DNA of 64,000 nucleotides from a virus. The translations under genes and the position numbers were made by a program. Positions within the stretch are counted from its first letter, which is position 1. Every line of letters starts with the position of its first letter. Below the pieces are notes generated by a model, which was not told the DNA's origin, searched no databases, and saw only the letters and a list, made by a program, of their open reading frames with translations. Location: IMG/VR virus record IMGVR_UViG_3300045988_166360, positions 1 to 64,000 of that record; one strand, given 5' to 3'. Below, in pieces: positions 6,961 to 61,915 of the stretch.

Positions 6961-7018
6961 TGTATTACTTTTTTAAATTTGTTGGTCTTTCCTGGCAACG
7001 CAAGTATAAGGCTAGAGG

Positions 7019-8730: not shown

Positions 8731-9016
8731 TGTTGTCTGTTCTGTTTAAGAGTTCTTTAAATCTTTCCTCAGCTTCCACAATGTTAGTGTAAGTCCACCC
8801 ATAACTCCCCCATTCTTCAGGACTGGGCAAATATTCGTCCCCTGCTTTAACTCCTGTGAAGTCATTGTCTTTCAACCGGGTTCGGACAAGAACAACTTCA
8901 TAATTCTTACGTACCCATTCGGGGCAAGTCTGTACATAAAGAGCTACGTTTCTTTTCCTTCTTATCAGAGTAAGTGTAAAGGGTTTTCTAATATATTTGT
9001 CAGGAATCTTTTTCAT
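8720..9016 (-). CDS. Hypothetical protein (98 aa)
   Basis: ORF in array. Confidence 0.55.
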   Translation of the reverse strand: MKKIPDKYIRKPFTLTLIRRKRNVALYVQTCPEWVRKNYEVVLVRTRLKDNDFTGVKAGDEYLPSPEEWGSYGWTYTNIVEAEERFKELLNRTDNNEH

Positions 9017-9045
9017 TTAGTGGTATTGTAAATTAAGTTTTTATG

Positions 9046-9300
9046 TTAATTCAAGCTTGAGGTTTCGTTTGGCTGAGGGATAATACCAGAAGTTACCGCA
9101 ATTTGTATTTCCTCTTTTATAATTTGCTCTAACTGAGAAGAAGGTTCAAATATCAGGTTAGCATAGAAACAACCAACATATCTGTCTATAGACATAGGGA
9201 TACCTTTCTTCTTAGCCGCCTTATAAAAAACGGGGATATACTCTTTGAGAAAACTTCGTACTAATTTTTCATGCTTCTGAATTAAAAATCTCTTCCTCAT
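9046..9300 (-). CDS. Hypothetical small protein (84 aa), paralog of 9330..9572
   Basis: Shared LKxxIPxxYKxAxKKGI...D.Y.G motif and near-identical 3' flank DNA with neighbour. Confidence 0.6.
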   Translation of the reverse strand: MRKRFLIQKHEKLVRSFLKEYIPVFYKAAKKKGIPMSIDRYVGCFYANLIFEPSSQLEQIIKEEIQIAVTSGIIPQPNETSSLN

Positions 9301-9329
9301 TTAATGGTATTATAAATTAAGATTTTATG

Positions 9330-9572
9330 TTAATCCAAGTTTTGAGGTCTTCTTAAAACAATGCCGGGACGTGGGATGTCCATCCTCTCTACTGCCCATT
9401 GGACTTCTTCCCGCACTATAGAATCAATAGCCTGGGCACCAAGTCTACCAACTGCAATCCCAATATAATTGTCCATAGTCAGGTCAATCCCCTTCTTCTG
9501 AGCCCTCTTATACCACAATGGGATATTCTTTTTAAGATAGTGTCGAATTAAATCCTCCTTCATACTTACCAT
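9330..9572 (-). CDS. Hypothetical small protein (80 aa), paralog of 9046..9300 (tandem duplication)
   Basis: Protein and flanking DNA similarity to neighbour. Confidence 0.6.
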   Translation of the reverse strand: MVSMKEDLIRHYLKKNIPLWYKRAQKKGIDLTMDNYIGIAVGRLGAQAIDSIVREEVQWAVERMDIPRPGIVLRRPQNLD

Positions 9573-19208: not shown

Positions 19209-19520
19209 TTTTCTGATTTGTTATTTTTTATATAGCGGCGGGGGAACCTTTCCCCGTTCGCATGACTTCACTTTATCGCATTTTTTCAGCACGTCAACTA
19301 TTTTTTTTATTTTGTATGACAAAGCTATAACCCCTTTATTTAGAGCTCTTTAGGTAGTCTAACATATGGAGGTCAAAAGCTGATTGCCGTTCCCGCCCCA
19401 TACCTTCCCGCTTACGATATGAAGCGAGAAAATGACAGGGGGGGGAGAAAAGAAAATTCCTACCTAAATAGTAGGAATCAGGAAGAAAAGAATGGGCCGC
19501 CCGTTTCGGCGGCCCCGGTG
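19209..19520. repeat. Copy 2 of the 310-bp terminator-promoter cassette (promoter -10 at 19270-19275, -35 at 19292-19297 on minus strand)
   Basis: See copy 1. Confidence 0.9.
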
Positions 19521-20196: not shown

Positions 20197-20280
20197 TCAA
20201 CTTTTATACACCATACCTATACCCCTATGGGTATAAGAGTACAATATATAGGGCCCCCCCCCCTCAAACTGGTCAAATAT

Positions 20281-22339: not shown

Positions 22340-22440
22340 AGAAAAAAATTGTATATATATATAATTTATAATATATAAAAAAAAAAAAAATAAAAAAAAT
22401 ATATTTACTGTATTACTATTTACTATTTAAAAAAAAAAGA
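22340..22440. repeat. AT-only low-complexity tract ((TA)n, A13, A8, A10) - candidate DNA-unwinding element or bend
   Basis: Read directly. Confidence 0.8.
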
Positions 22441-38114: not shown

Positions 38115-40394
38115 ATGCCTAAACCAGATTCCATTGCCCCGGTAGGGCCCGGAGTTATCGGCGTGGTTGACGAGAATGGCAACCTGCTGAAACGGCGGGT
38201 GCCTACCGCCGACCAGGCACGAGCTCTTTTATATTTCTGCCTCACCGCGGACCAGTTGTCCATGCAGGCCCGCACGGAAGCTCAGGCTGAACTTGACGGA
38301 CAACGCCCGTATGACCCGATGGCTTTGTCCGCAGTAGGACAGAACTACCGGACCAATTACAATTTCCGCACCATGCGGATTATCCGGGAAAAAGTGGCGG
38401 CCAGTTTGAGAGAGGTGTGGGACAGCCCTGAATTCATTTCAGTGCAAACCCGCTTCGGAGACGACTCCCGCAGACCTATTTATTCGGATATTCTGTCTTC
38501 CGAACTCACCCAGATGGTGAAGTCCATGCCGGGGTTCACCTCTATTATTACCGACCTCCTGCATTATTTTTCTTTCCATGGTTTCGGTCTTGCCTACTTT
38601 GAGGACCCCGACTCCTGGTTCTTTAAGGCAGGAAGCTTGAATGAATTTGCTTTTGAGCGCAAGGTTAAACCGGATAGCAGTACGCTGGAAGTGGTATTCG
38701 CCACGCGAACTCTGCGGGCTCATGAACTTTATGAGTATATCCGTGACCCCCAGACTGCGCGTGAAGCGGGCTGGGATGTGGAGGAAGTAATGAAAGTTCT
38801 TCGTACCGCCAGTTATAACCAGACTGTTCAGCCTCAGCGTATCTCCTGGGAAACGGAGAAGATGCTCAAGAACGGCGATTATACTTTGACGGATATTATT
38901 GGAACCAGCATTCCAATTTCCCACATGTGGGTTCGTGAATTCGACGGCACTGTCACCCATTCCATTTTCTTTGTCAACGGGAATGGCGGCAATGGCCAGG
39001 ATGTGAAGAGGGACCAGAACCGGGATGTGGATGACACCAAGTTCCTTTACACAAAGTATGGAGCTTATGACTCCATGGAACAGGCGTTTGTTCTTTTCCC
39101 CCTGGGCAGTAGCACCAACGGGGACATCCATGCTTTGCGCGGGTATGGGAACGACCTTCTTCCCCACACCAGAGTTATCGACAAACTGGTGAACCAGGCG
39201 ACGGATGCCGCTTTTCTGGGTATGTCTTTGAATGTGATGGCTTCCAATGAGACTTCCCGTCTCTCTGCCATGGTCAATCCGATGGGGGCTTACACTATCC
39301 TGGACCCCACGGTACAGTTGCAGACCAATGCCACGCCCAATCTGCAACAGGTTGCTTCCCTCCCCTTGACTTTGTTGCAAAGCCAGATTAGGGAACGTCT
39401 GGGTGAAATAGATGTCAACGCGGACGGAGGAATGGGCCGGACCCAACTGGAAGCGGAAATTCGAATGGGCAACGCAAGCAAGGTCAGCAACAATATCATG
39501 GACATGCTTTTGGAGCACTTGTCCACCCTTCTCCGTGAAATCGTTCGCCGCATTATCCGCAAGGACTATGACGAGGGGATTGCCGGGGCTAAGGAACGCC
39601 AGCGCATGATTGACCGCCTTGAGGAAGCCGGGGTTCCCGTGGAAGCCCTGTTTGCCATTGACCTGGATAGCGTTACAGCCCTGCCTCCCATTGGCGCGGG
39701 CAGTAAGGTAAGACGGACTCTGGCTCTCCGGCAGTGCCTCAACTATATGCAGTTCATGCCCCGGGCTGGGCAGGAACGTCTGATTCGTATGGCCATTGCC
39801 AACGAAACGAACGGACGCACGGCCCGCCTTCTCATGCCATTGAAGGATGACCCCAACCCCTCTGAAACGATTGCCGCATCCATTGCTTCCGTACAGAACA
39901 ATCAGCTTATGGCGGGACAGGAAGTTCCGGTTATGCCGAACGAAGACCACCGGACGCATGCCGAAGTGCATGCCAACTTTATTCTGTCTCTGGTCCCCGA
40001 TGCCCAGCTTACTCCTGAAGAAATGGCTCAACTTGCTCAGCCTCTGCAACTTTTGGTAAGCCAACTTGCTGGTCATATGGATTATCTACAGGCCAGTAAG
40101 GAAGTCGTTCCCGAATTTGAACAGTATGAAAAACTGGTCAAACGGTGTAACGAAATCATTACCAATGGCATGCGGGCCCTCGAAGCCATGCAGGCCAGGC
40201 AGAATGAAGAGCAGGGCCAGGAAGAAGGGCCTACGCCGGAACAAATGAAAGCCCAGGCCGACATCGAATTGAAGCGCATGAAGACGGAAGCGGAAATTAA
40301 ACTGGCTCAAGAAAAACAACAGGCAGAAATAGCGGCCAAGACTGTTGAAGCAAACGCCAAGGCCGCGGCAAACCTGGGAGGTACCAATGTCTAA
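38115..40394 (+). CDS. Putative portal protein (759 aa)
   Basis: Size and position between terL and scaffold/capsid genes; no motif-level proof. Confidence 0.5.
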   Translation: MPKPDSIAPVGPGVIGVVDENGNLLKRRVPTADQARALLYFCLTADQLSMQARTEAQAELDGQRPYDPMALSAVGQNYRTNYNFRTMRIIREKVAASLREVWDSPEFISVQTRFGDDSRRPIYSDILSSELTQMVKSMPGFTSIITDLLHYFSFHGFGLAYFEDPDSWFFKAGSLNEFAFERKVKPDSSTLEVVFATRTLRAHELYEYIRDPQTAREAGWDVEEVMKVLRTASYNQTVQPQRISWETEKMLKNGDYTLTDIIGTSIPISHMWVREFDGTVTHSIFFVNGNGGNGQDVKRDQNRDVDDTKFLYTKYGAYDSMEQAFVLFPLGSSTNGDIHALRGYGNDLLPHTRVIDKLVNQATDAAFLGMSLNVMASNETSRLSAMVNPMGAYTILDPTVQLQTNATPNLQQVASLPLTLLQSQIRERLGEIDVNADGGMGRTQLEAEIRMGNASKVSNNIMDMLLEHLSTLLREIVRRIIRKDYDEGIAGAKERQRMIDRLEEAGVPVEALFAIDLDSVTALPPIGAGSKVRRTLALRQCLNYMQFMPRAGQERLIRMAIANETNGRTARLLMPLKDDPNPSETIAASIASVQNNQLMAGQEVPVMPNEDHRTHAEVHANFILSLVPDAQLTPEEMAQLAQPLQLLVSQLAGHMDYLQASKEVVPEFEQYEKLVKRCNEIITNGMRALEAMQARQNEEQGQEEGPTPEQMKAQADIELKRMKTEAEIKLAQEKQQAEIAAKTVEANAKAAANLGGTNV

Positions 40395-45353: not shown

Positions 45354-47132
45354 ATGGATATTAACGACTATATAAACGGGACTCCTATTGAGCCGGGGGT
45401 TACGTACAAACTGGGGAATGCGGATGCCAATACCGCGTGGACCCTGGTTTCCGACCGCCCGTGCCTCTTTAAGCTGTCAGCCACGGCACCCACGGATTCC
45501 GCGTGGTCCAATGTCACGGAGGAACAATATATCATTAACGGAGACGTTTCCAATCAGGTTATTGAAATCACGTCTCCCAATGGCAAGTATTTTGTCGTAG
45601 CCACCCATGACCAGGATTCCGCGGCTACCGTGGAATCCGCGTATGCTACGGTGTCTCTTAAGCCGTTGGGTTTCAATGTAGAGGACTCATATGAAACAAC
45701 TCCGTTGAATGGAGACGGCCCGGTAACTGAAGGCTTTTATAAGATTTCCAACCTTGAATCCGGCAAGCTTTATTCCTTCAACGTAACCCCCGACGCGGGC
45801 GGCCTTAAGGCTACCAATCCCTCGCCGGAGTATGCTTTCTCCCTGTTCAGCGTAGATGGAAGCAACAATCCCAAGGCATTACTGGCCGCAGGGATTACGG
45901 AATGCCAGCTGGTATTTGTAGCCACGGAATCCACGGCAGTGCTGAACCTGTCCTCCACGCTTCCCGACAGCGAGTTTTTTGTCTGCATCCGAAATTTTAG
46001 TTTAGGCTCTGGTGGTTCCGGGTTCGACCCTTCTTCTGACCAGAGTATCACCGGAGCCTGGACCTTCTCCAATATTACCGTACCTACTCCCACGGCCTCT
46101 GGACAAGCGGCTAACAAGGGTTACGTGGATTCGAACTTCGTTTCGAAGTCTAATAATGAAACTATTGCAGGTGTTAAGACTTTTTCTTCGCCGCCTGTAG
46201 TTCCCAGTCCGACTGCGAATAATCAGGCCGCGCCGAAAAGCTATGTCGATTCCGCAGTAGATTCTGTTCACGAGTTTGACCCCGCAGAAGCCCAAAACAT
46301 TACCGGGTCTTGGAGCTTTTCGGATGGATTGACCAGAACCACAAAAGCATCCCCTGCAAATACAGATATCATGAATAAGGAAATGAGTGATGCTGTATAT
46401 GTACCTAAAGCGGGGGATTCTACTGTAGAGGGCACTAAAACCTTTTCCGGTTCAATTACCTTAGCTAATGAGGCTCCACTTGTTTTAGGGACAGGAACGG
46501 AGGCCGTAAAAATTTCGGGGTCAGGAACCGGGTCTGCTGTTATTGAAGGAGGCAACGATGCAACTTTGGATGTAGCTGTTCCCGTATCATTACAGGAAAC
46601 CGTAGCGATAACCAAGTTTACTTCAGATATATCTGAAATACCTTCTGCTCAGTCTCCGGTTACTCTGTGGGAACTTCAGAGCTTGAACGACGGTTGTTTG
46701 ATAACTCAAACAATCCCTAGCGGGAATCTCACTCTTACGGCTAAGGCATTTACTTCTGGTATAACTATTCAAAATAATGGATGGGCTATTACCAATAGTG
46801 CAGGACAATGCAACGGAGGTTACATTTTTCGAGGGGGAGTTACTTTTAGTCAAACTATTACAGTAGCTCAAACTGCTACCTTTAATGGTTCGGTAACGTT
46901 AGGCAACTCAGCCAAGATTTCTGGCCCTACACTGGACGAGTCGGCTATTTCTGACACGACATATATCCCTGTAGGCAACTCTGACCAGAAATATATCAAG
47001 TATAAGGAACTGACTAAAGCAGATTACGATGCTTTAGAAACGAAAAGCAATTCAACTATTTACTTTTTAACTGACCAGACTATGTGGGCTATCGGCACCA
47101 AGGAATTGGTGACTTCCGATATGCCCGCTTGA
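45354..47132 (+). CDS. Tail fibre protein (592 aa) with phage tail-fibre repeat-like segments (KGYVDS..., KSYVDSAVDSV)
   Basis: Repeated xYVDs motifs characteristic of tail-fibre repeats; Ser/Thr/Gly-rich. Confidence 0.6.
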   Translation: MDINDYINGTPIEPGVTYKLGNADANTAWTLVSDRPCLFKLSATAPTDSAWSNVTEEQYIINGDVSNQVIEITSPNGKYFVVATHDQDSAATVESAYATVSLKPLGFNVEDSYETTPLNGDGPVTEGFYKISNLESGKLYSFNVTPDAGGLKATNPSPEYAFSLFSVDGSNNPKALLAAGITECQLVFVATESTAVLNLSSTLPDSEFFVCIRNFSLGSGGSGFDPSSDQSITGAWTFSNITVPTPTASGQAANKGYVDSNFVSKSNNETIAGVKTFSSPPVVPSPTANNQAAPKSYVDSAVDSVHEFDPAEAQNITGSWSFSDGLTRTTKASPANTDIMNKEMSDAVYVPKAGDSTVEGTKTFSGSITLANEAPLVLGTGTEAVKISGSGTGSAVIEGGNDATLDVAVPVSLQETVAITKFTSDISEIPSAQSPVTLWELQSLNDGCLITQTIPSGNLTLTAKAFTSGITIQNNGWAITNSAGQCNGGYIFRGGVTFSQTITVAQTATFNGSVTLGNSAKISGPTLDESAISDTTYIPVGNSDQKYIKYKELTKADYDALETKSNSTIYFLTDQTMWAIGTKELVTSDMPA

Positions 47133-47190
47133 TGTGGGGGGGGGAGCTATTCCCCCCCCCCCACGGAACTAATTTACTGCAACAAAAGAC

Positions 47191-50302: not shown

Positions 50303-50330
50303 TTGACAAACCGAAACAGAGAACTATAAT
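50303..50330 (+). promoter_or_regulatory. Perfect consensus sigma70-type promoter TTGACA-N16-TATAAT
   Basis: Read directly; 27 nt upstream of ATG 50358. Confidence 0.7.
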
Positions 50331-51135: not shown

Positions 51136-51226
51136 TTACAGATGCCCCCCCTCTGGTTTATATTCTTCTCACTCTAAGTTTTTGTATTTCTTATTACCTG
51201 TACTCTAAAAATCCTGACCTCTTTAC

Positions 51227-51706
51227 ATGAAAAATCAAAGCCAACTCATCAAACACCCCGGACTCAAGTATCCCCGGAAGCCACGGAACAGCACACCCCC
51301 TGTACAGAAAATCCCACACGGATACCTTTCAACACAGGAAATCGCGGATGCCGTGGGAAGAACTCCTACATGTATTCTTACTACACTGGAACGCCGTAAA
51401 GTGCCTAAAGTACGTTTCGGAAGGGTTGTGTACTGGGACGGAGAACTTGCCCGAGAGTATATCAGGGAAGTCGATGCTGACGTGTATGACCATATGCCTA
51501 ACGGATATATTGACATAGAAAGCGCGTTGGAACTTACCGGATTCAAAAGTGCCGCTTATTTATCCACCCTGTTCAAGAGAGGGAAAGTGCGCCGTATCCG
51601 GTACCGGGATGACATGGGAGCCGGAAGAAAGACGAGGTTCGCGTACAATGTTCTTGACCTGGAAACTCTTTTGAGTTTAAATTCTGACCCGGAGGACCAT
51701 GACTAA
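51227..51706 (+). CDS. DNA-binding protein with two excisionase/MerR-type helix-turn-helix repeats (159 aa)
   Basis: Two repeats ...EIADAVGRTPTCILTTLERRKVPKVRFG... and ...ESALELTGFKSAAYLSTLFKRGKVRRIRY... resembling HTH_17. Confidence 0.5.
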   Translation: MKNQSQLIKHPGLKYPRKPRNSTPPVQKIPHGYLSTQEIADAVGRTPTCILTTLERRKVPKVRFGRVVYWDGELAREYIREVDADVYDHMPNGYIDIESALELTGFKSAAYLSTLFKRGKVRRIRYRDDMGAGRKTRFAYNVLDLETLLSLNSDPEDHD

Positions 51707-52055
51707 GAGTATCTTCACTACCCAAAGAACGCTTCATCCGCGGATGGGGGCACAGGAAAGGCTGTTAGGGATTTTAACAAACCTGGAACTGTTCGGTGTT
51801 GATTTTTCTTTGTCTTCTCTCAGGATTCTTTTGGCCCTTCACGGAAGCGGGGGTACCGCGAAACTAACGGCAAAACAGTTATCCCTTCAGCTAAGCCTGT
51901 CCACCTCGAACATTTCTTATCACCTCAACAAGCTTCTGGATTATGGCCATGTGGAGAAGGTAACGGACAGCGACCCCCAGCAATACCAGCTCACGGCACG
52001 GGGGAGGAACCTCTGCCGTGACATCTTCAAACCCCAAGAATACATCAACAAATGA
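51699..52055 (+). CDS. ArsR/MarR-type winged-helix transcriptional regulator (118 aa)
   Basis: LTAKQLSLQLSLSTSNISYHLNKLLDYGHVEKV matches the ArsR-family recognition helix pattern. Confidence 0.5.
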   Translation: MTKSIFTTQRTLHPRMGAQERLLGILTNLELFGVDFSLSSLRILLALHGSGGTAKLTAKQLSLQLSLSTSNISYHLNKLLDYGHVEKVTDSDPQQYQLTARGRNLCRDIFKPQEYINK

Positions 52056-52474
52056 CTCAAGAAGAAATTGAAAAGGTAGCCGAACGGCTTTATGCTTTGA
52101 CGGATTCCAGGATTCTATGGAATGACCTGGACGACGAAGGCCGGAAACCCTACGTCAATCTGGCAGACAGCCTGGTGGACAAAAGACCCGAAATTTTGGC
52201 AGAACTGGTATCTAAGTATTGTGTCGATTTCGGAATGCCCAGCAAGTACAAGGCGGTTGTCGCTGGGATTATTTCCGGGATTCTTACTGCGGTCCTGGCC
52301 CTGACGGGCTTTTCCGTAACAGGCTGTTCTTCTGTCGAGGTGACAGAAGGCGAAGCCGTCCTGTGCAAAGACGGCTCCTGCCTGGTACTAACCCCTGGAC
52401 ATATCTCCTATTCCCAGGCCCAGCCGGAAACGGACGTGCCTCCGGTTGTCCAGGTAAAACCCAACAAGAAGTGA
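52052..52474 (+). CDS. Membrane-anchored protein (one TM helix VAGIISGILTAVLALTGFSV) (140 aa)
   Basis: ORF, hydrophobic segment. Confidence 0.5.
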   Translation: MTQEEIEKVAERLYALTDSRILWNDLDDEGRKPYVNLADSLVDKRPEILAELVSKYCVDFGMPSKYKAVVAGIISGILTAVLALTGFSVTGCSSVEVTEGEAVLCKDGSCLVLTPGHISYSQAQPETDVPPVVQVKPNKK

Positions 52475-52475
52475 C

Positions 52476-53429
52476 ATGACCGACAACGAGGTTCAATATT
52501 CCGAGTTACCCTCTGCCCCGGACCTCTTTAATCATCCGGTACCCACGGTTCCCGTGGGTACCGAATTGTTTAATGACACGCCTCCGTTCGATTCTCTTCC
52601 TGACCCCATTGCCCCGGTTTATGGGGATAGTGACGTGGGAGTACAGGTTTCGCGTCCTTACAATGACGACCCGTTGTTTCGGAATTACCCGGAAAACATG
52701 TTCGCCATTGTTTATGACCCTGAGTCTATTAACGGCCCCAGTGTAAAATATGTGGCCGGAGTTATTATTGAGGGCAACAATGTTATCCAAATCGGAGGGA
52801 CTCCGGGGTCTCTGCAAAACGTAATGAGCAACGAGCATGCTCCTTTGGATGACAATATTACCTGGTATTTGAATGTACAGAGTGACAGGTCTGCTTCTAC
52901 CGTCAGCAGTACAAAGGACCCGCTGGCAGACTTTTGGGTTCCTCTGGCCAAGATAACCAAAGGATGCAACGGTTATATTCAACAGTTGCACCGGGGGGCT
53001 GTCTTTCTCTCTACGTCCGCTTATGGTTTTGAAGTTCAGTTGGAGTTCAATGAACAAGGGACCCGGACGGGGATTAAAGTGCGTCCCGGTATCGTCATGT
53101 TGAATGGAAAGTCCCTGGGGAAATTCCCTGAAACCTTACAGGATGAGCCCTGGTATTACTCTGCCTTTACTCAGGATGGTCCGGTATATTTAAGACTTAC
53201 CCTAGACGACCATAGTATGGTAACGGGCTCCGCTATTGAATTTGAGTTAGCGACCCCTAAAATATACAATCTAGTCATAGGTGCCGAGCAAAAAGAGGAC
53301 CCTCCATTTACCTACTCTTTTTTATTAGCAGATATTAAAGAAAAACAAGTCACTCAGTATCTGCTGGGTACGGTCCAGTTACCTGTAGGTGGTGGTACTT
53401 TCTTCCCATATGGTGCTATCGATGAATAA
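52476..53429 (+). CDS. Hypothetical structural or receptor-interaction protein (317 aa)
   Basis: ORF preceding glycosylation cassette. Confidence 0.55.
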   Translation: MTDNEVQYSELPSAPDLFNHPVPTVPVGTELFNDTPPFDSLPDPIAPVYGDSDVGVQVSRPYNDDPLFRNYPENMFAIVYDPESINGPSVKYVAGVIIEGNNVIQIGGTPGSLQNVMSNEHAPLDDNITWYLNVQSDRSASTVSSTKDPLADFWVPLAKITKGCNGYIQQLHRGAVFLSTSAYGFEVQLEFNEQGTRTGIKVRPGIVMLNGKSLGKFPETLQDEPWYYSAFTQDGPVYLRLTLDDHSMVTGSAIEFELATPKIYNLVIGAEQKEDPPFTYSFLLADIKEKQVTQYLLGTVQLPVGGGTFFPYGAIDE

Positions 53430-53486: not shown

Positions 53487-54224
53487 ATGGTTAGGGTTTA
53501 TTTATTTACTTATGCAAAAGATGCAAACCCTGCGTTAGCCTGCGTTCGCTGTCTTCGAAATACGTTGCCTGAAGCTTGGATTACTGTTGTAGATGATGCT
53601 TCTGCTCCTTGTTCTTCCGATTTTATAAGACAATGTTTTCAGTTGGGGGTTTTTTCTTACATGCAAAGCACCTTTCCTCGAAATGGAAACTTGAAAGGGG
53701 ATAGATGTATTAAAGGCATTCTGTCCACGTTGGTTCAAAATTCAAACGAAGATGACGTTATCATAAAGATTGACTCTGATACTTTGTTACTGTCTCCTGC
53801 TCCTATAGAACGAATGCGGAACTTGGAGGCAGATGGCTTCGGAGCCAGTTCTTTATTCCGTCCTTTCGCGGGATTATGCTATGGCTTTACACAAAAAGCA
53901 TTAAAACTTTTACATGAAAAAACATATCTATTACCGTCTTCCTCTACGATAGAAGAAGATTTATGGATTGGAAAATTGATTTTTTTACAAAAGTTAAATA
54001 TGGCTATAGACAGGCCATGGACTCCCGTACATACTCAAGGACGGTGGACTGCCTATAACTGGCCATATTCTCCTGTCTTAGAACTATATCGCTCTTTGGA
54101 CGTAGTAACGTTTGGAACTTTTGAAGGAATCCCCTCTGTAGATAAAAACCATGTGGCAAACAAAATGAACGCTTTAATAGACTTGGTATATGGACCTGGC
54201 AATAATACCTGCAAAGCATCATAG
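53487..54224 (+). CDS. GT-A fold glycosyltransferase, family 2-like (245 aa)
   Basis: N-terminal WITVVDDASAP (compare VIVVDDGS of GT2) and DxD-like IKIDSDTLL. Confidence 0.5.
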   Translation: MVRVYLFTYAKDANPALACVRCLRNTLPEAWITVVDDASAPCSSDFIRQCFQLGVFSYMQSTFPRNGNLKGDRCIKGILSTLVQNSNEDDVIIKIDSDTLLLSPAPIERMRNLEADGFGASSLFRPFAGLCYGFTQKALKLLHEKTYLLPSSSTIEEDLWIGKLIFLQKLNMAIDRPWTPVHTQGRWTAYNWPYSPVLELYRSLDVVTFGTFEGIPSVDKNHVANKMNALIDLVYGPGNNTCKAS

Positions 54225-54795
54225 TTCAGAAGTCCCTTATAAAAACTTTCGGGCTCTATGGAGGGAGCCTCTTTTTTTACATTCCGTGAGGTATGCAGTA
54301 AAAGAAGGTGTACCCTGTGTAGTTTCTACGGACAGCGAAATTATTAAAGGTTTATGTCGTCGAAATAATATCCCTTACCTCCATGAAGAAGTAGATGATT
54401 CTAATATCCTGAATTGTGTAACTCAAGTAGTTAAAAAAGAAAAAGTGGATAGGTGGATTCTTTTACAACCTACAAGCCCGATACGCCCCCCCTCTCTGCT
54501 TAAGAAGTTATTGAGTAAGAATAATGAAAATATTATGACGGTTCAAAAAATATATCTCCATGGTAAACTGGGAAGCCGTTTTATACATAAAACTCGAAGG
54601 CAGGAATCCTCTGAAATCTTATATCAATTCAACGGAAGTATTTTAATAGGGAGTTATGACATGGTAATGAAGGAACAGACCCTATTCAAAAACCCTTTAA
54701 TGGTAGAACAGAGGGGACTATATAACTATCAAATAGACTATCTTGAAGATTTTGAACACCTGGAAAGGTATGGAAATTTGCATTGTGGGGAATAA
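54190..54795 (+). CDS. Acylneuraminate (CMP-NeuAc)/CMP-Kdo synthetase-family cytidylyltransferase (201 aa)
   Basis: AIIPAK....YKN, PLF.HSV, VVSTDSE, ILLQPTSPIR, NGSILIG segments align with NeuA/KdsB conserved blocks; the glycine-rich P-loop is atypical (HHSSEV). Confidence 0.65.
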   Translation: MDLAIIPAKHHSSEVPYKNFRALWREPLFLHSVRYAVKEGVPCVVSTDSEIIKGLCRRNNIPYLHEEVDDSNILNCVTQVVKKEKVDRWILLQPTSPIRPPSLLKKLLSKNNENIMTVQKIYLHGKLGSRFIHKTRRQESSEILYQFNGSILIGSYDMVMKEQTLFKNPLMVEQRGLYNYQIDYLEDFEHLERYGNLHCGE

Positions 54796-55285
54796 AAAGC
54801 CCAGTCAGGATTTTACCCAGGAAATAAATTCCGCAGACCAGGTTGTTCGAGTCAGTAAAATGGATTATCTAGATACTAGGTTGATAGGTTCTCGAACTGA
54901 TGAACTGTATCTGGAACCAAACATGGTGTGGCATTCTTATTCGCCAGAGGTTAGAAAATTATCTCTACTGCCCCGCATACCTTTAATTCATATTAGAGAA
55001 TCCTGGTGGAACCGGGTAGGAGAACACCTGCTTAAACAAAAGTGGATTAACAAAGGCCAAGTTAGAATAATTCCTAAAAGCAGGGAATTGGTTATGCCGG
55101 GATGCACTACATTGGCAATAGCTGTATATGATATTTCATTAAGATTCCCCGAAGCCAAATTACTTTTAACTGGGGCAGACATAGGGGAAGAAAGAAGAAA
55201 AATATTTTGGATTCATGTTTCCGGTGGAGAGGTGGAATTTTTGAATAGACTTATTTCAGAAGGAAGACTGAGGGTGTTGGGATAA
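54743..55285 (+). CDS. GT42 (Campylobacter CstII-type) sialyltransferase-like protein (180 aa)
   Basis: ICIVGNKKPS...EIN...DQVVRVSKMD resembles the CstII N-terminal IIAGNGPSL..EID...FDVFRCN; GCTTLAIAV...LLLTGADI resembles SGVYMCAVAIALGYKEIYLSGIDF. Confidence 0.55.
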   Translation: MKILNTWKGMEICIVGNKKPSQDFTQEINSADQVVRVSKMDYLDTRLIGSRTDELYLEPNMVWHSYSPEVRKLSLLPRIPLIHIRESWWNRVGEHLLKQKWINKGQVRIIPKSRELVMPGCTTLAIAVYDISLRFPEAKLLLTGADIGEERRKIFWIHVSGGEVEFLNRLISEGRLRVLG

Positions 55286-55365
55286 TGATTGCGGGAATAT
55301 ACAGAAAATGTATATTCCCGCAATCGTTTTATGAGAATGACACGGAAAACGCTTGATGGATTTTT

Positions 55366-56088
55366 ATGGCCAGTAATAATAACCCCATGTCCGAAACACA
55401 ACCTAACCATGAGTTTGATGATTTTGTTTTCATCATTTTTGCGTACAACTCTACCCTGGACTGGCCGGAGCGTGAGCCTCTGCTTGTTCACTATTCTGTC
55501 AATTATCTGCTCAACCACGGAATCCCCGGAACCCGTATTACCGTTCTGGCCAATGACCTGTCGGTATGTTCCTGGGCAAACCAGCAGGGAATGAAGTTTA
55601 TCCAGCTTAAAGCCACAAACCGTAAAACGATTACGGAAGCTATATCCTCCATAATGGGGGAGAATCCGTGGAAGAATATCATATGTCTCAACACCGTATT
55701 TCCTGTGCGTGAAGCGGACCTCCTGTCTTTGATGTGCAGTCAAATCAGGACGGAAAAACAACGGCTCTTTCTCACTGCTCACATGGGAGCCCACCACCAG
55801 AAGGAAGATAACACAGTAACTTGGGATACTGTATTGAACGGAAGTATCTTGGGCTTTCGTCACGACTCTGATATTAAATCCATCTTCCATCCCGATACAT
55901 TGTATCCTGTGCATCACAATGCTGAATGCGGGAATTATAACATCTGCTACAGATACCAGTATATGAAGGAACCCCTGGAATCCGCGGTTGCCGTGGGTTA
56001 CAAAATGTCCGCATGGACTGCGCCCTGCCCATCAGAATATCCCCGCAGGGTGGAAATAAAGCTGGACAAGGACACAGCTACCCACTAA
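55366..56088 (+). CDS. Second, divergent cytidylyltransferase-like protein (KdsB/NeuA fold; degenerate N-terminal P-loop FIIFAYN) (240 aa)
   Basis: REPLLVHYSVNYLLNHG..RITVLAND..V..WANQQG parallels KdsB [37 protein letters not shown]. Confidence 0.45.
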   Translation: MASNNNPMSETQPNHEFDDFVFIIFAYNSTLDWPEREPLLVHYSVNYLLNHGIPGTRITVLANDLSVCSWANQQGMKFIQLKATNRKTITEAISSIMGENPWKNIICLNTVFPVREADLLSLMCSQIRTEKQRLFLTAHMGAHHQKEDNTVTWDTVLNGSILGFRHDSDIKSIFHPDTLYPVHHNAECGNYNICYRYQYMKEPLESAVAVGYKMSAWTAPCPSEYPRRVEIKLDKDTATH

Positions 56089-58161: not shown

Positions 58162-58217
58162 TTCTTTACACAGAGAAACGCGTTTAGTATCATGGCGGCG
58201 GGGTTAATCCTGCCGCC

Positions 58218-58592
58218 ATGTTTTTATTTGCTTTACTAGGCGTGGATGTTGGTGTCTGGACAATGTTCCTGACCCGCATTGTGGAGGAAATGAGCCCCGC
58301 GTACCTGGTGTTCGTGGGGCTCATTTTCGTGGCGGTTAAACTGGGGTACAAATATCTTAGCAAAAAAATTGATTTTACCTTGGACAAGGAAAAGTCATTT
58401 TTGGTCTTGCTTCAAGAGGCTCTACATGTTATCTCCGAACTGGATGAAACTCTCGACCAACTGCATGGGAAAGTTGATGCTCTCCGAAGCGACCATGAAG
58501 AGCTACTGGAACTACTCAGACAACAAAACATAACCAATGAAATTCCTGTCAAAACTATTTCAAAACCTCGAAAACCAAAAAACAGTCTGTGA
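58218..58592 (+). CDS. Holin-like protein (two N-terminal TM helices plus C-terminal coiled coil) (124 aa)
   Basis: FLFALLGVDVGVWTMFL and AYLVFVGLIFVAV hydrophobic helices; adjacent to lysin candidate. Confidence 0.45.
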   Translation: MFLFALLGVDVGVWTMFLTRIVEEMSPAYLVFVGLIFVAVKLGYKYLSKKIDFTLDKEKSFLVLLQEALHVISELDETLDQLHGKVDALRSDHEELLELLRQQNITNEIPVKTISKPRKPKNSL

Positions 58593-59049
58593 TAAACTGG
58601 CCACAGACCTGAACTGCTTAAGCAAAGAGTTGAGTCAATGCAGAAAACGCATTGCTGAAAGAAACCGATTCTATGCTACGCTTCCCATTGGGTGTGAAGA
58701 GGAAATGAAACTGCCCAGGAACCAGTGGGCATACTTCCTAAAAGGGAAAGTGGGGATTAAATACGTAGGGGAAAACCTTACCAGTTCCGTTACCTATGTC
58801 AAAACAAGGGAGGAAGTTAAAATCCCCAGGATTATTGACAGTGAACGGTCCCACAAACTCTATGTTATTTCTGGATATGTTATTGACAGGACTACAAATC
58901 TGACATATTCTGAAGGCGAATCAATTTCTTTTTTGAGGGGAGAACCCATGTCCCTGACCATTTACGGTTATGTCAGGATGACCTGGACTCCCCCGCTTCC
59001 CGGCTCAACACTTCCGTTCTTCCATTCGAATCATGCCTCTAATTCCTAA
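58537..59049 (+). CDS. Hypothetical protein (170 aa; real start probably downstream of the overlap)
   Basis: ORF. Confidence 0.45.
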   Translation: MKFLSKLFQNLENQKTVCDKLATDLNCLSKELSQCRKRIAERNRFYATLPIGCEEEMKLPRNQWAYFLKGKVGIKYVGENLTSSVTYVKTREEVKIPRIIDSERSHKLYVISGYVIDRTTNLTYSEGESISFLRGEPMSLTIYGYVRMTWTPPLPGSTLPFFHSNHASNS

Positions 59050-61915
59050 TACTGGTGCATCCAGCCCGCAACCGCCGATAATTCCAATAGGGACCACGGA
59101 CAGTTCGTGGCGCAACGGCCATGACCCGGACCGCCCCATGGGGGAACCCATTATCAATTTTCCCTATGCCGTAGTTAAGAACGTCATGTTCTTCGTGGAA
59201 CGGATTGTCAAAAATCCTAATGAACTGTCTGCCGAACTGGGGACTCCCTACAACCCCACTGCCGGGACCACCTTCCTCCCGTACATGCGGGAAGCGGTCC
59301 TGGTCCATGTGGAACCCGTAGCGGAAGACGCGCGTCGGCATATCTATCGGTTCTACTACATGGTGCCTCCCCAGGAGCAGTTCAAATACAACATCCAGGA
59401 TATGAAAAAAATTCAGGATGGGTATACGCTTAAGGACACGGCGGCGAACGGGAAGTTTATGAGCAGTGCGGCAGATGCCGACGACTTGAAAGATTTCTAC
59501 GAGATTACCCGGGAATGGGTGGAACCCACGGATTCCGCGTACACCCCGTTAGCCCTTGGTTCCTTTGACCCCAGCAACGAGAAGCTTGACCCTGACTTCT
59601 ATGACTTGCACGATTTCACGGGCTACGATGCCCAGCTGGTTTATGAAGAAGTAGGAAAATTTGAGGAAGACTACCTCAACAAATATTTCCGAAAAGTGTT
59701 GCGCGTGTATAAAACTCTCCCCGGTCCTGTTGTCAAGGAGTTCATGCCCAACAATATGTGGGTAAAGGGGGACACTGTATGGGAAAACGGCGGCCCCGGA
59801 ACTTCTGTTCCCGAAAACGAATGGGTGTCTCAAAACGCTATCAAACTTTCCCGCGAAGTGTGGGCCGCCCCTCTGTGGGAAGGGGAAGGCGGGCCGGAAC
59901 CTGGACAGGCGCGCATCCCCCATATGCCTACGGAAGAATTCGGGGAACAGCCCATCAGCACGGGGTGGGACAAGGGTTCCTACCCCAGCCTTCAGATGTA
60001 CACTATTGTGTCCATGTTCAAGCGCAATTCATCCATTGTGGAAAAGGAACAGCAGAACAGCCTTTCCGGCAACTGTTGCAACCCCGACTCCCGGTTCGTG
60101 CGCTGTATCAACACCACAGTGACGACCAGCCAGTCAGTGGACTGGACGGCCAACGGGGACCTTCCATCCATTGAACCCCCGGACCCCAGTGAGAACTGTA
60201 GCCAATGGAGGGTGGATAGTAGTGTGGTAGTCCGAGAAGGGTATAGCCAGAAGGAAACCCGGAAGCAATGCACTACGTATAAACAGATTGACGAGTTCTG
60301 GGAATCCCAGTTCGACCGGATTACGAACCAGGTTTATCCGGTGCTTCGCAAAATCGTGCACGACCCCTCCACCGACTTCGACACGGTATGGCAGGAAGAA
60401 GGGTTCAAAAAATACACGGATGCCGTGGGTAATGTTTACTACGGGCGCAAGCTGGAAAACCCGACAATCGAAGTTCCGGTTTCCATCCCCGACACCCCCT
60501 GGACCCAGCTGACTTATTCCCTGAACGATTTTACCGCTTCGGAGGACAACCCCAGCCCGAGCGGCATGCTCACCAATTTCAGTACGGTCAACCCCTGGAA
60601 CAGCCCCAGTTATCCGAACTACGCCGGAACCTTCGCGTTCAACTGCGAATATACTTCCAACAATACCGGGGATGACAGGGGCACCGTGGTTTCCATCAAC
60701 TTCAAAGGAAACCGCTGGTGGCCTATGTATATTCAAAACAGCTACCCCACTTCGGAGTCTCCGGGAACAATTACTAATTCACCGCACTACGTGAACATTA
60801 ACCCTGACGGTCCCTGGTACACCCAGAACGGCCAGTACAAAGTCAGAGGGGAACTTTTCATAACTGACACCCTGTATGCCGAAGGGGTCACTGGCCAGAC
60901 CTGGACTTTCCCCATAGGTTATATGGACGGTTCAGGTGTGTACCAGCGCAACAATTCCTATAACCCGGAAATGAAATTTACCGTAGGAGCTTTGCCTACG
61001 GGAATCAGCAACGCTTACCTGGACGTGGAGTTGGGCCAGTTGAATCTTCATTGCTGGATTGAAAACCCAGACAACTCTAATATCACCGGGACTATTCCCA
61101 TACTCCTGAACGGCACAAAAATATTTGACATCGAAGTTTCCGGTGTAGTCAGTACCGGGAACGAACCTCCGAACGTAAGCAGTTCAAGGCTCGCCAAAGC
61201 CGACTATACGGACGGGACCTACGTCCTCAAATCCGAAGTCGTTAATAAGCTGGACATGACGTTCAACTGCCAACGGTTCCCTTACTGGCAGTTTGGAGTA
61301 ACTATAGCCAGCTTAAACGGCAATACCTATAAACGGGAAACAAGCACCGAAGTGTCCCGTGTAGTCCTCCGGCAGTGGGTGAACCCCTGCTACGCTGTGG
61401 ATAGCTACATGCAGGTTCCCGGTATTGGATATTACCGGAAATATACCACCACCATGAACTACAGTTTCCCGCCAGTCCTGGGAAGCGTCATGTGGATGCC
61501 GTGGAACACCCGGCCCGATATGTCCGGGAAAGGAGGCGGCCAATACTTCCCTACGACAACCATGTCTCAGGACTCCTATTCAGGCCCCTGCACGGCAATT
61601 GTGGAAGAACTGTTCAGCCCGGATGGTTCCTGGCCGAACACCTGGGGCCTGGGAACAACTCCGCAGTATATTACCAACAGCGGGTATTTCTCCACGCCGT
61701 TGGTGGATTTCCGTCTCCCAGCCTGCCTCCACCCTAACCTGAACTTTGTCGTGACAATCGGAAACCAGGATGCCAAATGGCAACCCGGCCAATTCACATG
61801 CACCTTCCCTTCCACCTCTGTGACCACCTGGCAACCCGTAACTTCCTACTACGCGTCCCCGTGGAACGGCGGCATGCTGTGCAAGAAAGTAACCATCTAT
61901 CCTCCAACCGCATAA
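59033..61915 (+). CDS. Large tail protein, receptor-binding or tail-spike candidate (960 aa, Trp/Tyr/Asn/Gly-rich)
   Basis: Size, composition, position after lysis genes in the tail region. Confidence 0.6.
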   Translation: MPLIPNTGASSPQPPIIPIGTTDSSWRNGHDPDRPMGEPIINFPYAVVKNVMFFVERIVKNPNELSAELGTPYNPTAGTTFLPYMREAVLVHVEPVAEDARRHIYRFYYMVPPQEQFKYNIQDMKKIQDGYTLKDTAANGKFMSSAADADDLKDFYEITREWVEPTDSAYTPLALGSFDPSNEKLDPDFYDLHDFTGYDAQLVYEEVGKFEEDYLNKYFRKVLRVYKTLPGPVVKEFMPNNMWVKGDTVWENGGPGTSVPENEWVSQNAIKLSREVWAAPLWEGEGGPEPGQARIPHMPTEEFGEQPISTGWDKGSYPSLQMYTIVSMFKRNSSIVEKEQQNSLSGNCCNPDSRFVRCINTTVTTSQSVDWTANGDLPSIEPPDPSENCSQWRVDSSVVVREGYSQKETRKQCTTYKQIDEFWESQFDRITNQVYPVLRKIVHDPSTDFDTVWQEEGFKKYTDAVGNVYYGRKLENPTIEVPVSIPDTPWTQLTYSLNDFTASEDNPSPSGMLTNFSTVNPWNSPSYPNYAGTFAFNCEYTSNNTGDDRGTVVSINFKGNRWWPMYIQNSYPTSESPGTITNSPHYVNINPDGPWYTQNGQYKVRGELFITDTLYAEGVTGQTWTFPIGYMDGSGVYQRNNSYNPEMKFTVGALPTGISNAYLDVELGQLNLHCWIENPDNSNITGTIPILLNGTKIFDIEVSGVVSTGNEPPNVSSSRLAKADYTDGTYVLKSEVVNKLDMTFNCQRFPYWQFGVTIASLNGNTYKRETSTEVSRVVLRQWVNPCYAVDSYMQVPGIGYYRKYTTTMNYSFPPVLGSVMWMPWNTRPDMSGKGGGQYFPTTTMSQDSYSGPCTAIVEELFSPDGSWPNTWGLGTTPQYITNSGYFSTPLVDFRLPACLHPNLNFVVTIGNQDAKWQPGQFTCTFPSTSVTTWQPVTSYYASPWNGGMLCKKVTIYPPTA

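Follow-up and report, generated by a model that had tools for sequence, protein, structure and literature searches.

What would a phage do with four clustered genes, one of which belongs to a family of sugar-activating enzymes and lies directly beside another whose product resembles sialyltransferases? Serotype-converting modules such as gtrABC of P22/SfX and oac of Sf6 are phage-borne, lie near a receptor-binding gene and modify the surface glycan, masking the receptor. In mycobacteriophages, soluble glycosyltransferases encoded beside the structural genes act on virion proteins in the cytoplasm; to our knowledge, the donors there are ordinary hexose-type ones and the enzymes are of the GT2/GT4 type. 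Our search of the literature turned up no phage sialyltransferase or cytidylyltransferase cassette. Here we analyze such a candidate in a 64,000-nucleotide stretch of viral DNA (positions 1 to 64,000 of IMG/VR record IMGVR_UViG_3300045988_166360, hereafter the window), where a sequence-only reading had proposed a nonulosonic-acid/Kdo-type glycosylation cassette of four genes, here called A to D.

Layout and neighborhood of the cassette

ORFs A to D were all recovered on the + strand where they had been placed (Table 1), between structural and lysis genes, in keeping with the proposed location in an accessory region. All four ORFs are conserved. The description as four consecutive, overlapping genes holds in that A and B overlap by 35 nt and B and C by 26 nt (C counted from ATG 54770, its start in all homologues), but C and D are separated by an 80-nt gap. 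Gene callers start D at ATG 55387. An ORF at 55213-55917 on the - strand was considered as the real gene in place of D and rejected, because conservation at the protein level in distant relatives is seen only in the + frame. None of the four proteins has a transmembrane segment. The GC content of A-B-C is 0.37-0.40 against 0.47-0.52 in the flanks, making the region a low-GC island.

Table 1. Positions and assignments of the cassette genes and neighboring features in the window
Feature	Position	Strand	Length	Assignment
A	53487-54224	+	245 aa	Soluble DxD glycosyltransferase of GT-A fold; GT31/GT8-like; unannotated phage family
B	54190-54795	+	201 aa	Divergent CMP-ulosonic-acid synthetase, PF02348 CTP_transf_3
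C	54743/54770-55285	+	180/171 aa	Minimal protein of predicted sialyltransferase fold; putative CMP-ulosonic-acid transferase
D	55366-56088	+	240 aa	Degenerate B-type cytidylyltransferase-fold paralogue
Poly-C tract, C7	54486-54492	+		Within B, immediately 3′ of the QPTSPIR codons
Upstream 317-aa protein	52476-53429	+	317 aa	Candidate receptor-binding/tail-fibre-like protein, candidate acceptor
140-aa protein	52052-52474	+	140 aa	One hydrophobic segment
Winged-helix regulator	51699-52055	+		MarR/ArsR-type; PF12802 E 3.3e-8, PF01022 E 2.2e-6

We put the phage genome at about 70-72 kb, of which about 6-8 kb lie outside the window. It encodes a DNA polymerase of its own as well as a protein of the helicase/primase type. 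Neither a NeuB/NeuC-like synthase nor an integrase was found among 30 larger ORFs of the window, so the earlier statement that NeuB/NeuC is missing holds for the ORFs scanned; a tRNA search of the window found none. Two regulators and a membrane protein had been reported to adjoin the cassette. The MarR-type regulator and a protein with one strong hydrophobic segment are indeed present, but the second regulator has weak HTH/excisionase-like matches only. A, C, D and the upstream 317-aa protein have no match in Pfam, PHROG or NCBIfam models, and the labels GT2 and GT42 given to A and C are therefore not family memberships.

The C-terminal domain of the 317-aa protein (~140 aa, about residues 175-315, ending GTFFPYG) moves together with A-B-C between unrelated elements. 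In L002 and L007, the proteins encoded immediately 5′ of A-B-C, of 717 and 738 aa, end in this domain; these loci share with the window only the domain and A-B-C. The 317-aa protein has no family or PDB match and no detectable homology to known virion proteins; from its position only, a structural (fibre/receptor-binding) role is putative. The 140-aa protein is co-conserved with it in related phages. Its sequence reads as an internal Met62 followed by a lipoprotein-like signal (…LTGFSVTG-C92).

Gene B encodes a member of the CMP-sugar synthetase family

B belongs to the CMP-sugar synthetase family: it matches PF02348 at E 2.1e-9 (38 bits; gathering score 22.6), with residues 4-192 aligning to profile positions 2-203 of 217. 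The NeuA/KdsB-family call is thereby upheld, and the two blocks cited for it, ILLQPTSPIR and VVSTDSE, both lie in B. Thirteen family members share the invariant residues IIPAK9, S12, K18-N19, Q93-P-T-S-P-x-R99 and Q181-I-D183, and the nucleotide-binding loop and the Q-x-x-x-P sugar/Mg motif are present and align to those of NeuA and KdsB. Searched against structures, the B-family profile finds KdsB (1vh3, 5.6e-10) and NeuA (1eyr, 3.3e-9).

The identity of the sugar is less evident from these comparisons. LLQPTSPLR is identical to the sequence of N. meningitidis NeuA, whereas KdsB has QGDEP there. B scores 30.6-36.5 bits against the NCBIfam KdsB equivalogs, far below their cut-offs of 155-255 and with QPTSP in place of QGDEP, and 27 bits against the PseF equivalog, whose cut-off is 205.7. 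For the 13 family members PseF is the best NCBIfam match (2.8e-17 vs 2.1e-12 for KdsB), while for the window B itself KdsB models are slightly ahead of PseF. As regards the NeuA catalytic residues, QPTSPIR, KN and D183, at the position of the Mg-binding D211 of N. meningitidis NeuA, are present, but the position of the other Mg-binding residue, D209, is an invariant Gln in the B family. The C-terminal xIDT motif thus holds a single Asp, as in the aligned KdsB (GVDT), compared with two in NeuA (DID). Overall we favor a nine-carbon acid of the sialic, pseudaminic or legionaminic type over Kdo as the probable substrate.

The poly-C tract of B varies in length. In two independent metagenome contigs (L003 and L028) it is C8, which causes a frameshift and truncates B, and in the L006 lineage the tract is interrupted. 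Two of 12 near-identical contigs thus carry a frameshifted B, and so the pathway is sometimes not intact.

Gene C encodes a putative minimal sialyltransferase-fold enzyme

Modeling shows a predicted sialyltransferase-type fold for C, the GT-A variant common to GT29, GT42, Maf and MptE, and its nearest structures are all sialyl- or NulO-transferases. This part of the proposed CstII-like assignment stands, but membership of GT42 does not: C has no Pfam match at E <= 1, PF06002 and PF00777 included, and in the PDB search CstII chains reach no better than E about 0.5, with residues 1-62 aligned. The sole near-significant sequence match of the C family to PDB profiles is to sialyl motif L of ST3Gal-I.

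Both blocks on which the GT42 call was based, GNKKPS...EI...D.VVR and LTGADI, are found in C, the first of them within a motif-L-like GNK...D23-x-V-x-R27; the protein also has T113-T114 and a VS-motif-like H149-x4-E154. The full CstII/Cst-I architecture (~260-290 aa, a lid domain, and a His with two phosphate-binding Tyr) is not seen in the 171-aa C. H149 and E154 are conserved across the family, at a spacing that we take to be that of the GT29 VS motif, and from this spacing H149 is likely to be the general base. A conserved His, the candidate counterpart of CstII His188, is thus present, but an invariant phosphate-binding Tyr is not. Among the nine closest homologues the only invariant Tyr is Y47, in a YLEPN motif upstream of that region, and the 25-sequence C alignment has no invariant or near-invariant Tyr. 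The Asp of the G-x-D position varies within the family. As predicted from the models, the C family comprises undescribed, very small, putative enzymes of sialyltransferase fold, structurally closer to animal GT29 than to known bacterial families.

Genes A and D

A is a metal-dependent glycosyltransferase of GT-A fold, as indicated by its fold, its DxD motif (D96-S-D98) and its acidic catalytic-base motif (E157-D158), both motifs being invariant in the family. The GT2 assignment was not borne out: there is no profile match to PF00535 or related GT2 Pfam models, and the nearest structures are GT31 and GT8. Sequence and profile searches of A against the PDB gave matches at chance level only. A relationship of A to the nucleotidyltransferase B was also considered and rejected (hhalign of A against B, 4% probability). 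In unrelated phages without B and C, the start of an A-family gene and the stop codon of a large ORF lie no more than a few bases apart, and the two genes often overlap by 4 nt. We take these large unannotated genes that habitually precede the A family to be putatively tail-fibre-like.

D was correctly recognized as a second, degenerate KdsB-like protein. Aligned by hhalign with the enlarged B family, it gives a probability of 95% (E 3.5e-8; D 40-195 on B 28-185), compared with 0.2-0.3% in controls against A and C. An earlier alignment with a smaller B profile had reached a probability of 50%, and the relationship became convincing only with the enlarged profile and the controls. The catalytic motifs are gone: where B has PAK, KN, QPTSP and QID, D reads FAY, ER, NTVFP and NIC. 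Searches of D against the PDB and Pfam gave no match beyond chance level, and it is conserved at 24-26% identity in the related phages L001, L008 and L009. D is likely to be non-catalytic or repurposed, judging from these substitutions.

Mobility, B-C coupling and host

This uncultured phage is common in human gut metagenomes, and the exact A protein is present in 133 blocks of the sequence collection. INPHARED has no match to the region (megablast), nor to the terminase, B or C (tblastn), so there is no cultured relative to lend annotation; the phage DNA polymerase has matches there at <28% identity only. None of 50,697 deposited phage genomes holds a B- or C-like gene. The trio A+B+C recurs in unrelated viral contigs whose GC content ranges from 37% to 59%, C being triplicated in L039/L040 and in L037, and the invariant catalytic-type residues of A, B and C are kept across lineages that are only 30-55% identical. 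ORFs beside B-like genes in other viral contigs, inspected by eye, look like ordinary phage genes (methylase-, amidase- and transposase-like) rather than sugar synthases. From this distribution we conclude that A-B-C is, as far as gene content tells, a horizontally acquired cassette joined with the upstream C-terminal domain.

Every phage locus has B and C side by side with overlapping ends. Of the 9 multi-domain representatives scanned, 8 join the two in a single chain, once in reversed order, and B-C fusions also occur in 11 genome loci, eight of these genome hits being in Akkermansia/Verrucomicrobiales MAGs. In one fusion C is also joined to a GT10 fucosyltransferase. Gene order and fusion together show a predicted functional coupling of B and C, and the link between them is thus stronger than could be seen from the window alone, the domains being fused in many bacteria. 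The gene clusters that hold the bacterial fusions also encode GT4, GT31+GT11, GT6 and GT10 enzymes together with a weakly CgtA-like protein, by gene content a glycan-assembly context.

The Akkermansia fusion proteins share 37-40% identity with B in their N-terminal domain, and the closest bacterial relatives of the C family are likewise found in Akkermansia. The distribution of homologues makes this genus or a related verrucomicrobial species the probable host. The lipooligosaccharide (LOS) of A. muciniphila is complex and fucosylated, has no O-antigen and carries three Kdo residues, with sialic acid unmentioned (PMC11436972). A literature search found neither a bacterial sialyltransferase of Akkermansia nor a matching Akkermansia phage.

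A proposed capping pathway and its alternatives

We propose that the cassette is an acquired cytoplasmic glycan-capping pathway in which B activates, C transfers and A builds the acceptor, the virion being slightly favored as its target (probability roughly 0.55). B would use CTP to convert a 2-keto-3-deoxy (ulosonic) acid from the host pool to the CMP-sugar, and C would transfer the ulosonic acid from this donor to a glycan. A, if GT31-like and of the inverting beta-1,3 type, would make or lengthen the acceptor for capping by C, with a UDP-sugar as donor; D could, speculatively, assist as a partner subunit or a scaffold. Because none of the four proteins is other than soluble, the acceptor must be reachable from the cytoplasm. 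It may be the phage's own upstream protein, the putative receptor-binding or tail-fibre protein, which would yield a glycosylated virion. The domain shared with L002/L007 and the coupling of the A family to large ORFs slightly favor such a virion or fibre target, as judged from gene context.

A plausible but less probable acceptor is a lipooligosaccharide or capsule precursor on the cytoplasmic face of the host membrane, whose modification would mask the receptor and bring about superinfection exclusion or spare progeny from adsorbing to debris and vesicles. The oligosaccharide-type glycosyltransferase clusters of the bacterial B-C fusions point this way, a lipid-linked glycan appearing to fit them at least as well as a protein, and so do the co-conserved membrane/lipoprotein-like gene and the regulators upstream. 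Linkage of a receptor-binding domain to receptor-altering enzymes is moreover the established logic of serotype-converting phages. Fucosylated A. muciniphila LOS is a plausible phage receptor (PMC11436972), and phages have been proposed to target the A. muciniphila capsule (PMC13343947). However, the A family is tightly tied to large upstream ORFs even where B and C are absent, and late cytoplasmic modification would leave little time to reach the surface in a lytic cycle. The scanned ORFs include replication genes of the phage's own and no integrase, which argues against classical lysogenic conversion and makes a stable form of it unlikely.

The nature of the sugar and the integrity of the enzymes allow further readings. 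We consider it less likely that Kdo, or an octulosonic acid resembling it, takes the place of the nonulosonic acid; B would then act as a CMP-Kdo synthetase and C as the Kdo transferase. CMP-Kdo is unstable, and channeling of this labile donor would explain the synthetase-transferase fusions; KdsB models and structures are the best matches of the window B, and the single Asp of the xIDT motif is KdsB-like rather than NeuA-like. The sugar-site motif QPTSPxR, on the other hand, is that of NeuA and not the aligned QGDEP of KdsB, PseF scores best family-wide, and the structures nearest to C are all sialyl- or NulO-transferases. We know of no characterized Kdo transferase (GT30, GT99 or GT107) with a GT29/GT42-type fold. 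The neighboring GT10/GT11/GT6/GT31 enzymes also form a host-glycan-mimicry-like set, of which sialic acid would be the natural cap. In favor of Kdo, no scavenging would be needed, because the presumed host already makes it, with three residues in its LOS (PMC11436972). It is improbable that C is instead an MptE/thiamine-pyrophosphokinase-like nucleotide-dependent enzyme or binding module that serves a different cytidylyl-dependent pathway together with B: such enzymes are equally small and C lacks a sialyltransferase Pfam match, but its top matches and sole sequence-level signal are sialyltransferases, the G-x-D Asp varies while H149 and E154 are conserved, and it is found fused to a CMP-sugar synthetase, once also to a GT10 fucosyltransferase, within glycosyltransferase clusters. 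Least credible is a decaying, non-functional passenger or moron remnant. The loss of all catalytic motifs in D, the frameshifted B in some near-identical contigs and the atypical GC would agree with decay, but it is contradicted by the retention of catalytic-type residues across divergent lineages, the recurrence of the trio in unrelated phages and the many copies of the exact A protein.

The proposed capping of the virion can be carried further, to a distinctly speculative picture that we think unlikely to hold in full. The phage would cap its putative receptor-binding protein with a mucus-derived sialic-acid-type sugar freed by its mucin-degrading host and so appear 'self'-like in mucus; the C family would represent minimal prokaryotic or phage relatives of eukaryotic GT29, and the poly-C tract of B may switch expression.

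Comparison with known systems

The LOS sialylation genes of Campylobacter jejuni (neuA, the GT42 gene cstII/cst-I and cgtB/cgtA) encode a transferase of about 290 aa, compared with the 171 aa of C. In contrast to that GT42 enzyme, C has no PF06002 match and no lid or membrane-association region and is, by its predicted structure, closer to GT29; in contrast to the C. jejuni set as a whole, the genes described here are phage-borne, no neuB/neuC was found, and B is a separate branch of PF02348. Compared with eukaryotic and viral GT29 enzymes (ST3Gal-I, PDB 2wnf; those of giant viruses and poxviruses), C lacks a PF00777 match, the disulfide cysteines, an obvious motif III and the stem/TM; at roughly half their size, it is a cytoplasmic protein of prokaryotes or phages. 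The Maf flagellin nonulosonic-acid transferases and MptE-like proteins have no detected sequence similarity to C; Maf proteins are much larger and multidomain, and no flagellin-type substrate is present here.

Whereas mycobacteriophage virion glycosylation relies on other donors, this cassette would represent a branch built on a CMP-ulosonic acid, complete with the enzyme that activates the sugar, and acting on a putative substrate protein. Gtr systems consist of membrane proteins that act in the periplasm with undecaprenyl-phosphate-linked sugars in temperate phages, while the present cassette is all soluble, putatively CMP-sugar-based and, among the scanned ORFs, not accompanied by an integrase.

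If the chemistry is as proposed, this would be, as far as we know, the first known phage-encoded activation and transfer of a sialic-acid-type sugar. If the virion is the target, phage virion glycosylation would extend beyond actinobacteriophages, with a bearing on the adherence of gut phages to mucus and on immune recognition. The C family also bears on the origin of eukaryotic sialyltransferases and offers compact candidate catalysts for glycoengineering. Finally, host-glycan mimicry by a medically interesting bacterium is suggested by the Akkermansia loci in which the synthetase-transferase fusion stands beside GT10, GT11, GT6 and GT31 enzymes.

A common gut phage with a four-gene cassette

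The window derives from a phage encoding a family-A DNA polymerase, helicase/primase-type proteins, an exonuclease, a large terminase, an endolysin with a PG_binding_3 domain and, in its leftward early region, the flavin-dependent thymidylate synthase ThyX. No close relative turned up in 50,697 deposited phage genomes. Even so, 133 blocks of a public assembly collection contain gene A's exact product, on contigs of 67-72 kb whose record names point to human-gut metagenome studies. The phage is thus common in the gut, uncultured and about 70-72 kb long. Current libraries leave much of it unannotatable: three ORFs of 1911, 960 and 759 aa lack a PHROG match and, where tested, a Pfam match.

An ORF check of the window bore out the four genes of the sequence-only reading, here called A to D. 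Gene C starts at the ATG used by all its homologues. A and B overlap by 35 nt, B and C by 26 nt, and a gap of 80 nt separates C from D. A-B-C form a low-GC island (0.37-0.40 versus 0.47-0.52 on both flanks). No hydrophobic segment was found in any of A to D, and all four proteins are predicted to be soluble.

Coordinates of the cassette and of other features in the window
Feature	Position	Strand	Product or remark
A	53487-54224	+	245 aa
B	54190-54795	+	201 aa
C	54770-55285	+	171 aa
D	55366-56088	+	240 aa
Upstream protein	52476-53429	+	317 aa
Membrane protein	52052-52474	+	140 aa
ThyX	8041-8730	-	PF02511, E 3.9e-44
Unannotated ORF	71-5806		1911 aa
Unannotated ORF	38115-40394		759 aa
Unannotated ORF	59033-61915		960 aa
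Tail-fibre-like gene	45354-47132		592 aa
Tract inside B	54486-54492		C7
Tract	47136-47162		G9 closely followed by C11
Tract	20254-20263		C10
Tract	19438-19445		G8
Tract	22377-22390		A14
Tract	51145-51151		C7
Promoter-like site	50303-50330		TTGACA-16-TATAAT
Terminator-like hairpin	58191-58220		13 bp, GC-rich

B belongs to the cytidylyltransferase superfamily

B matches PF02348 (CTP_transf_3) with an E value of 2.1e-9 and 38 bits, against a gathering score of 22.6, and falls far below all NCBIfam equivalog cut-offs (31-36 bits versus 155-255 for the KdsB models, 27 versus 206 for PseF). A profile of the phage B family recovers the structures of KdsB (5.6e-10) and NeuA (3.3e-9) almost equally. 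In alignments, its LLQPTSPxR block equals LLQPTSPLR in NeuA of N. meningitidis, the KdsB counterpart being QGDEP, and its K-N pair also matches NeuA; of the C-terminal Asp pair of NeuA, D209 is replaced by an invariant Gln and D211 is kept as D183. All 13 B-family members examined match both PseF and KdsB, with best single scores of 2.8e-17 and 2.1e-12, respectively. B is therefore a true member of the superfamily and forms a separate branch within it; its substrate is somewhat more likely to be a nonulosonic acid than Kdo.

C has a predicted sialyltransferase fold

C has no match among Pfam, PHROG and NCBIfam models, and phmmer found nothing for it in the PDB. An AlphaFold model built from nine close sequences is confident (pLDDT 87.8, pTM 0.86) and displays a sialyltransferase fold. 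Its structural neighbours, given with their scores, are the GT29 enzymes ST3Gal-I (12.0), ST6GalNAc2 (11.7), ST8SiaIII (9.4) and ST6Gal1 (9.3), an archaeal MptE-type HPPK (10.9), SteA (10.8), thiamine pyrophosphokinases (about 6-9), Maf (8.4) and the GT42 enzyme Cst-I (8.2). Among predicted viral structures the best were one phage orthologue, followed by GT29 proteins of giant viruses, herpesviruses, poxviruses and uncultured phages. A 25-sequence profile of the C family ranks ST3Gal-I first in the PDB, with an E value of only 0.05, over an alignment that spans exactly sialyl motif L (icivgNk...eiDsaDlVvRvskm versus CAVVGNSGNL...QIDSHDFVLRMNKA); CstII comes next at about 0.5.

Residues N8, D23, V25, R27, G40, D44, T114, H149 and E154 are kept across the family, the last two in an H-x4-E spacing. 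The VS motif of GT29 has the same spacing, and its His is the catalytic base. GT29 and GT42 enzymes are about twice the size of C, which lacks both the lid and Tyr pair of GT42 and the cysteines and motif III of GT29. C is thus not the GT42 (CstII-type) enzyme first proposed: it lies nearer to GT29 and is probably not a member of that family either. To our knowledge it is the smallest protein with a sialyltransferase fold.

B and C are fused in bacteria

B and C are coupled. When 1.84 billion representatives were searched exhaustively with a profile, 121 proteins with the C domain were found. CTP_transf_3 was present in 8 of the 9 multi-domain proteins scanned, directly N-terminal to the C domain in 7, one of which also carries an N-terminal GT10 fucosyltransferase. 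A scan of one genome per species gave 11 loci, all with B-like and C-like parts in a single ORF and 8 of them in Akkermansia or Verrucomicrobiales MAGs, a distribution that is a lower bound and may be biased, as the search pattern (VxRxSKM...) was narrow. The B part of these fusions is 30-40% identical to phage B (E down to 1e-40). Genes that are split in phages form one fused chain in Akkermansia.

The bacterial loci have a glycan-assembly context, with GT4, a protein combining GT31, methyltransferase and GT11, GT6, GT10, GT32 plus GT31, and a weakly CgtA-like protein nearby, along with a serine recombinase and a large RHS-repeat protein. By analogy, this enzyme set recalls makers of blood-group and Lewis-type structures. 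Mainly because of this context, together with the fold, C is read as a probable transferase consuming the CMP-sugar of B.

On four Akkermansia/Verrucomicrobiales MAG contigs (L014, L016, L021, L022), large multi-domain glycosyltransferase clusters flank the fusion, including a GT10 + CTP_transf_3 + C-domain protein, and are adjoined by a serine recombinase or PIF1 helicase and a 2011-aa RHS-repeat protein. The set has the look of a mobile locus serving to mimic host glycans of the blood-group or Lewis type.

Genes A and D

A has no profile match, and a Pfam domain was found in none of 53 homologues. Its confident model (pLDDT 90.6) predicts a GT-A fold, as the sequence-only reading had it, with a DxD site; the GT2 assignment found no support, GT8 enzymes scoring about 14-15 in structural comparison and the GT2 enzyme SpsA only 11.5. 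Invariant residues (D96-x-D98, T99, G129, D158) and those conserved in at least 90% of the family (D37, K94, E157) are consistent with functions usual in GT-A enzymes, namely nucleotide contact, a DxD metal site and an acidic base.

An A-family gene directly follows a large ORF that has no annotation, and in many cases the two overlap by 4 nt at the stop of the latter. The layout recurs in unrelated phages without B and C, usually near lysis genes (L010-L012, L053, L054, L056, L039). One such upstream ORF has a faint YadA_head match; the others are putatively tail-fibre-like by size and position. In L054 a 957-aa protein (6609-9482) 3′ of the A-family gene weakly matches Stealth_CR2, a capsule hexose-1-phosphate transferase family, a hint of association between A-family genes and other enzymes that modify glycans.

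D had been suggested to be a second, degenerate cytidylyltransferase-like protein, and profile comparison agrees: it is a degenerate paralogue of B. Against a small B alignment hhalign gave 50% probability; once the fusion domains were added to the B profile, the probability rose to 95% (E 3.5e-8, 150 columns), with 0.2-0.3% in control runs against A and C. The motif positions are not kept, PAK reading FAY, KN reading ER, QPTSP reading NTVFP and QID reading NIC. D is present in the related phages L001 and L008/L009 and is not downstream of C in the unrelated element L002 (L007, another such element, ends too soon after C to judge); D is therefore peripheral to the core cassette.

A mobile unit with an upstream protein

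In the window the 140-aa and 317-aa proteins precede A-B-C-D. L001, L008 and L009, which are related phages, keep these genes but in a shuffled order, B-C-[140]-[317]-A-...-D. L002 and L007 (the same as L036, 59% GC), two otherwise unrelated elements, resemble the window only in A, B and C and, preceding them, the final ~140 residues of a 717/738-aa protein. The three genes also turn up jointly in other viral contigs of 37-46% GC, which are unrelated to the window. There (L039/L040, 6631-8226, and L037, 4151-5999; GC 0.45 and 0.37) C occurs as three tandem paralogues beside a B-like and an A-like gene. The functional unit is therefore the C-terminal domain of the upstream protein with A, B and one or more copies of C. 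Receptor-binding tips of phage fibres are known for this pattern, in which a distal domain swaps along with its downstream accessory genes. The 317-aa protein has no detectable homologue of known function.

Triplication of C suggests several linkages, several acceptors or oligomer synthesis. In the otherwise near-identical contig L025 (ENA ERZ28641034 scaffold_46), a rearrangement/duplication of ~100 nt inside the 317-aa gene leaves only a 70-aa ORF. The 140-aa protein, co-conserved with the cassette, has a single hydrophobic segment and a short, Cys/Pro-containing tail; its internal Met62 precedes a lipoprotein-like signal (MPSKYK-hydrophobic-…SVTG-C92), and initiation there could give a small lipoprotein, such as an o-spanin-like or Llp-like exclusion factor.

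Proposed pathway and acceptor

In the pathway we propose, B would convert a sugar supplied by the host into a CMP-ulosonic acid, C would transfer the ulosonic acid with H149 as base, a role suggested by motif spacing, A would supply or extend the acceptor, and D would be a non-catalytic partner. No NeuB/NeuC-like gene was seen among the window's larger ORFs, the extent to which the earlier claim of a missing synthase holds, nor by eye beside B-like genes in other viral contigs.

We infer the sugar, the acceptor, the host and any virion role of the upstream protein. Virion glycosylation, with the upstream putative fibre protein as acceptor, is slightly favoured because the cassette is linked to that protein's C-terminal domain, genes of the A family are tied to a large ORF just 5′ of them, no integrase turned up in the scanned ORFs, and the cassette sits between structural and lysis genes within promoter- and terminator-like bounds (pattern matches). 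A close rival is that host LOS or capsule precursors are modified, masking the receptor; this fits both the glycan clusters that surround the bacterial homologues and Akkermansia LOS and capsule biology (PMC11436972, PMC13343947). The published A. muciniphila LOS carries three Kdo residues and several fucoses, with sialic acid unmentioned in the paper (PMC11436972), which keeps Kdo alive as the sugar.

The logic resembles that of Campylobacter LOS sialylation (neuA, cst and a beta-1,3 transferase) and of Maf-type protein glycosylation with nonulosonic acids, and the setting is like that of virion glycosylation in mycobacteriophages or of serotype conversion. Unlike in those systems, the families of C, A and D carry no annotation, B stands on a separate branch, and the carrier is a phage with no integrase found among the ORFs scanned. 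Literature searches turned up no account of a cassette of this kind. Its interest is real, yet hangs on biochemical proof of the proposed enzyme roles.

Variable tracts and transcription-like signals

The C7 tract inside B encodes R-P-P directly after QPTSPIR. It is C8 in two independent metagenome contigs (L003 and L028) of 12 near-identical ones, where the frameshift truncates B, and is interrupted in the more divergent L006 lineage (CCCCCCAC). The difference may stem from assembly error, or the pathway may be phase-variable through strand slippage.

A perfect sigma-70 consensus lies 5′ of ORF 50358 (verrucomicrobial promoters may differ), and a strong terminator-like hairpin lies just 3′ of the endolysin gene. 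These two pattern matches bracket the regulators, cassette and endolysin as one possible transcription unit. Of the other homopolymer tracts, the G9/C11 pair, directly 3′ of the tail-fibre-like gene, could form a strong hairpin, and the rest may be hypervariable sites.
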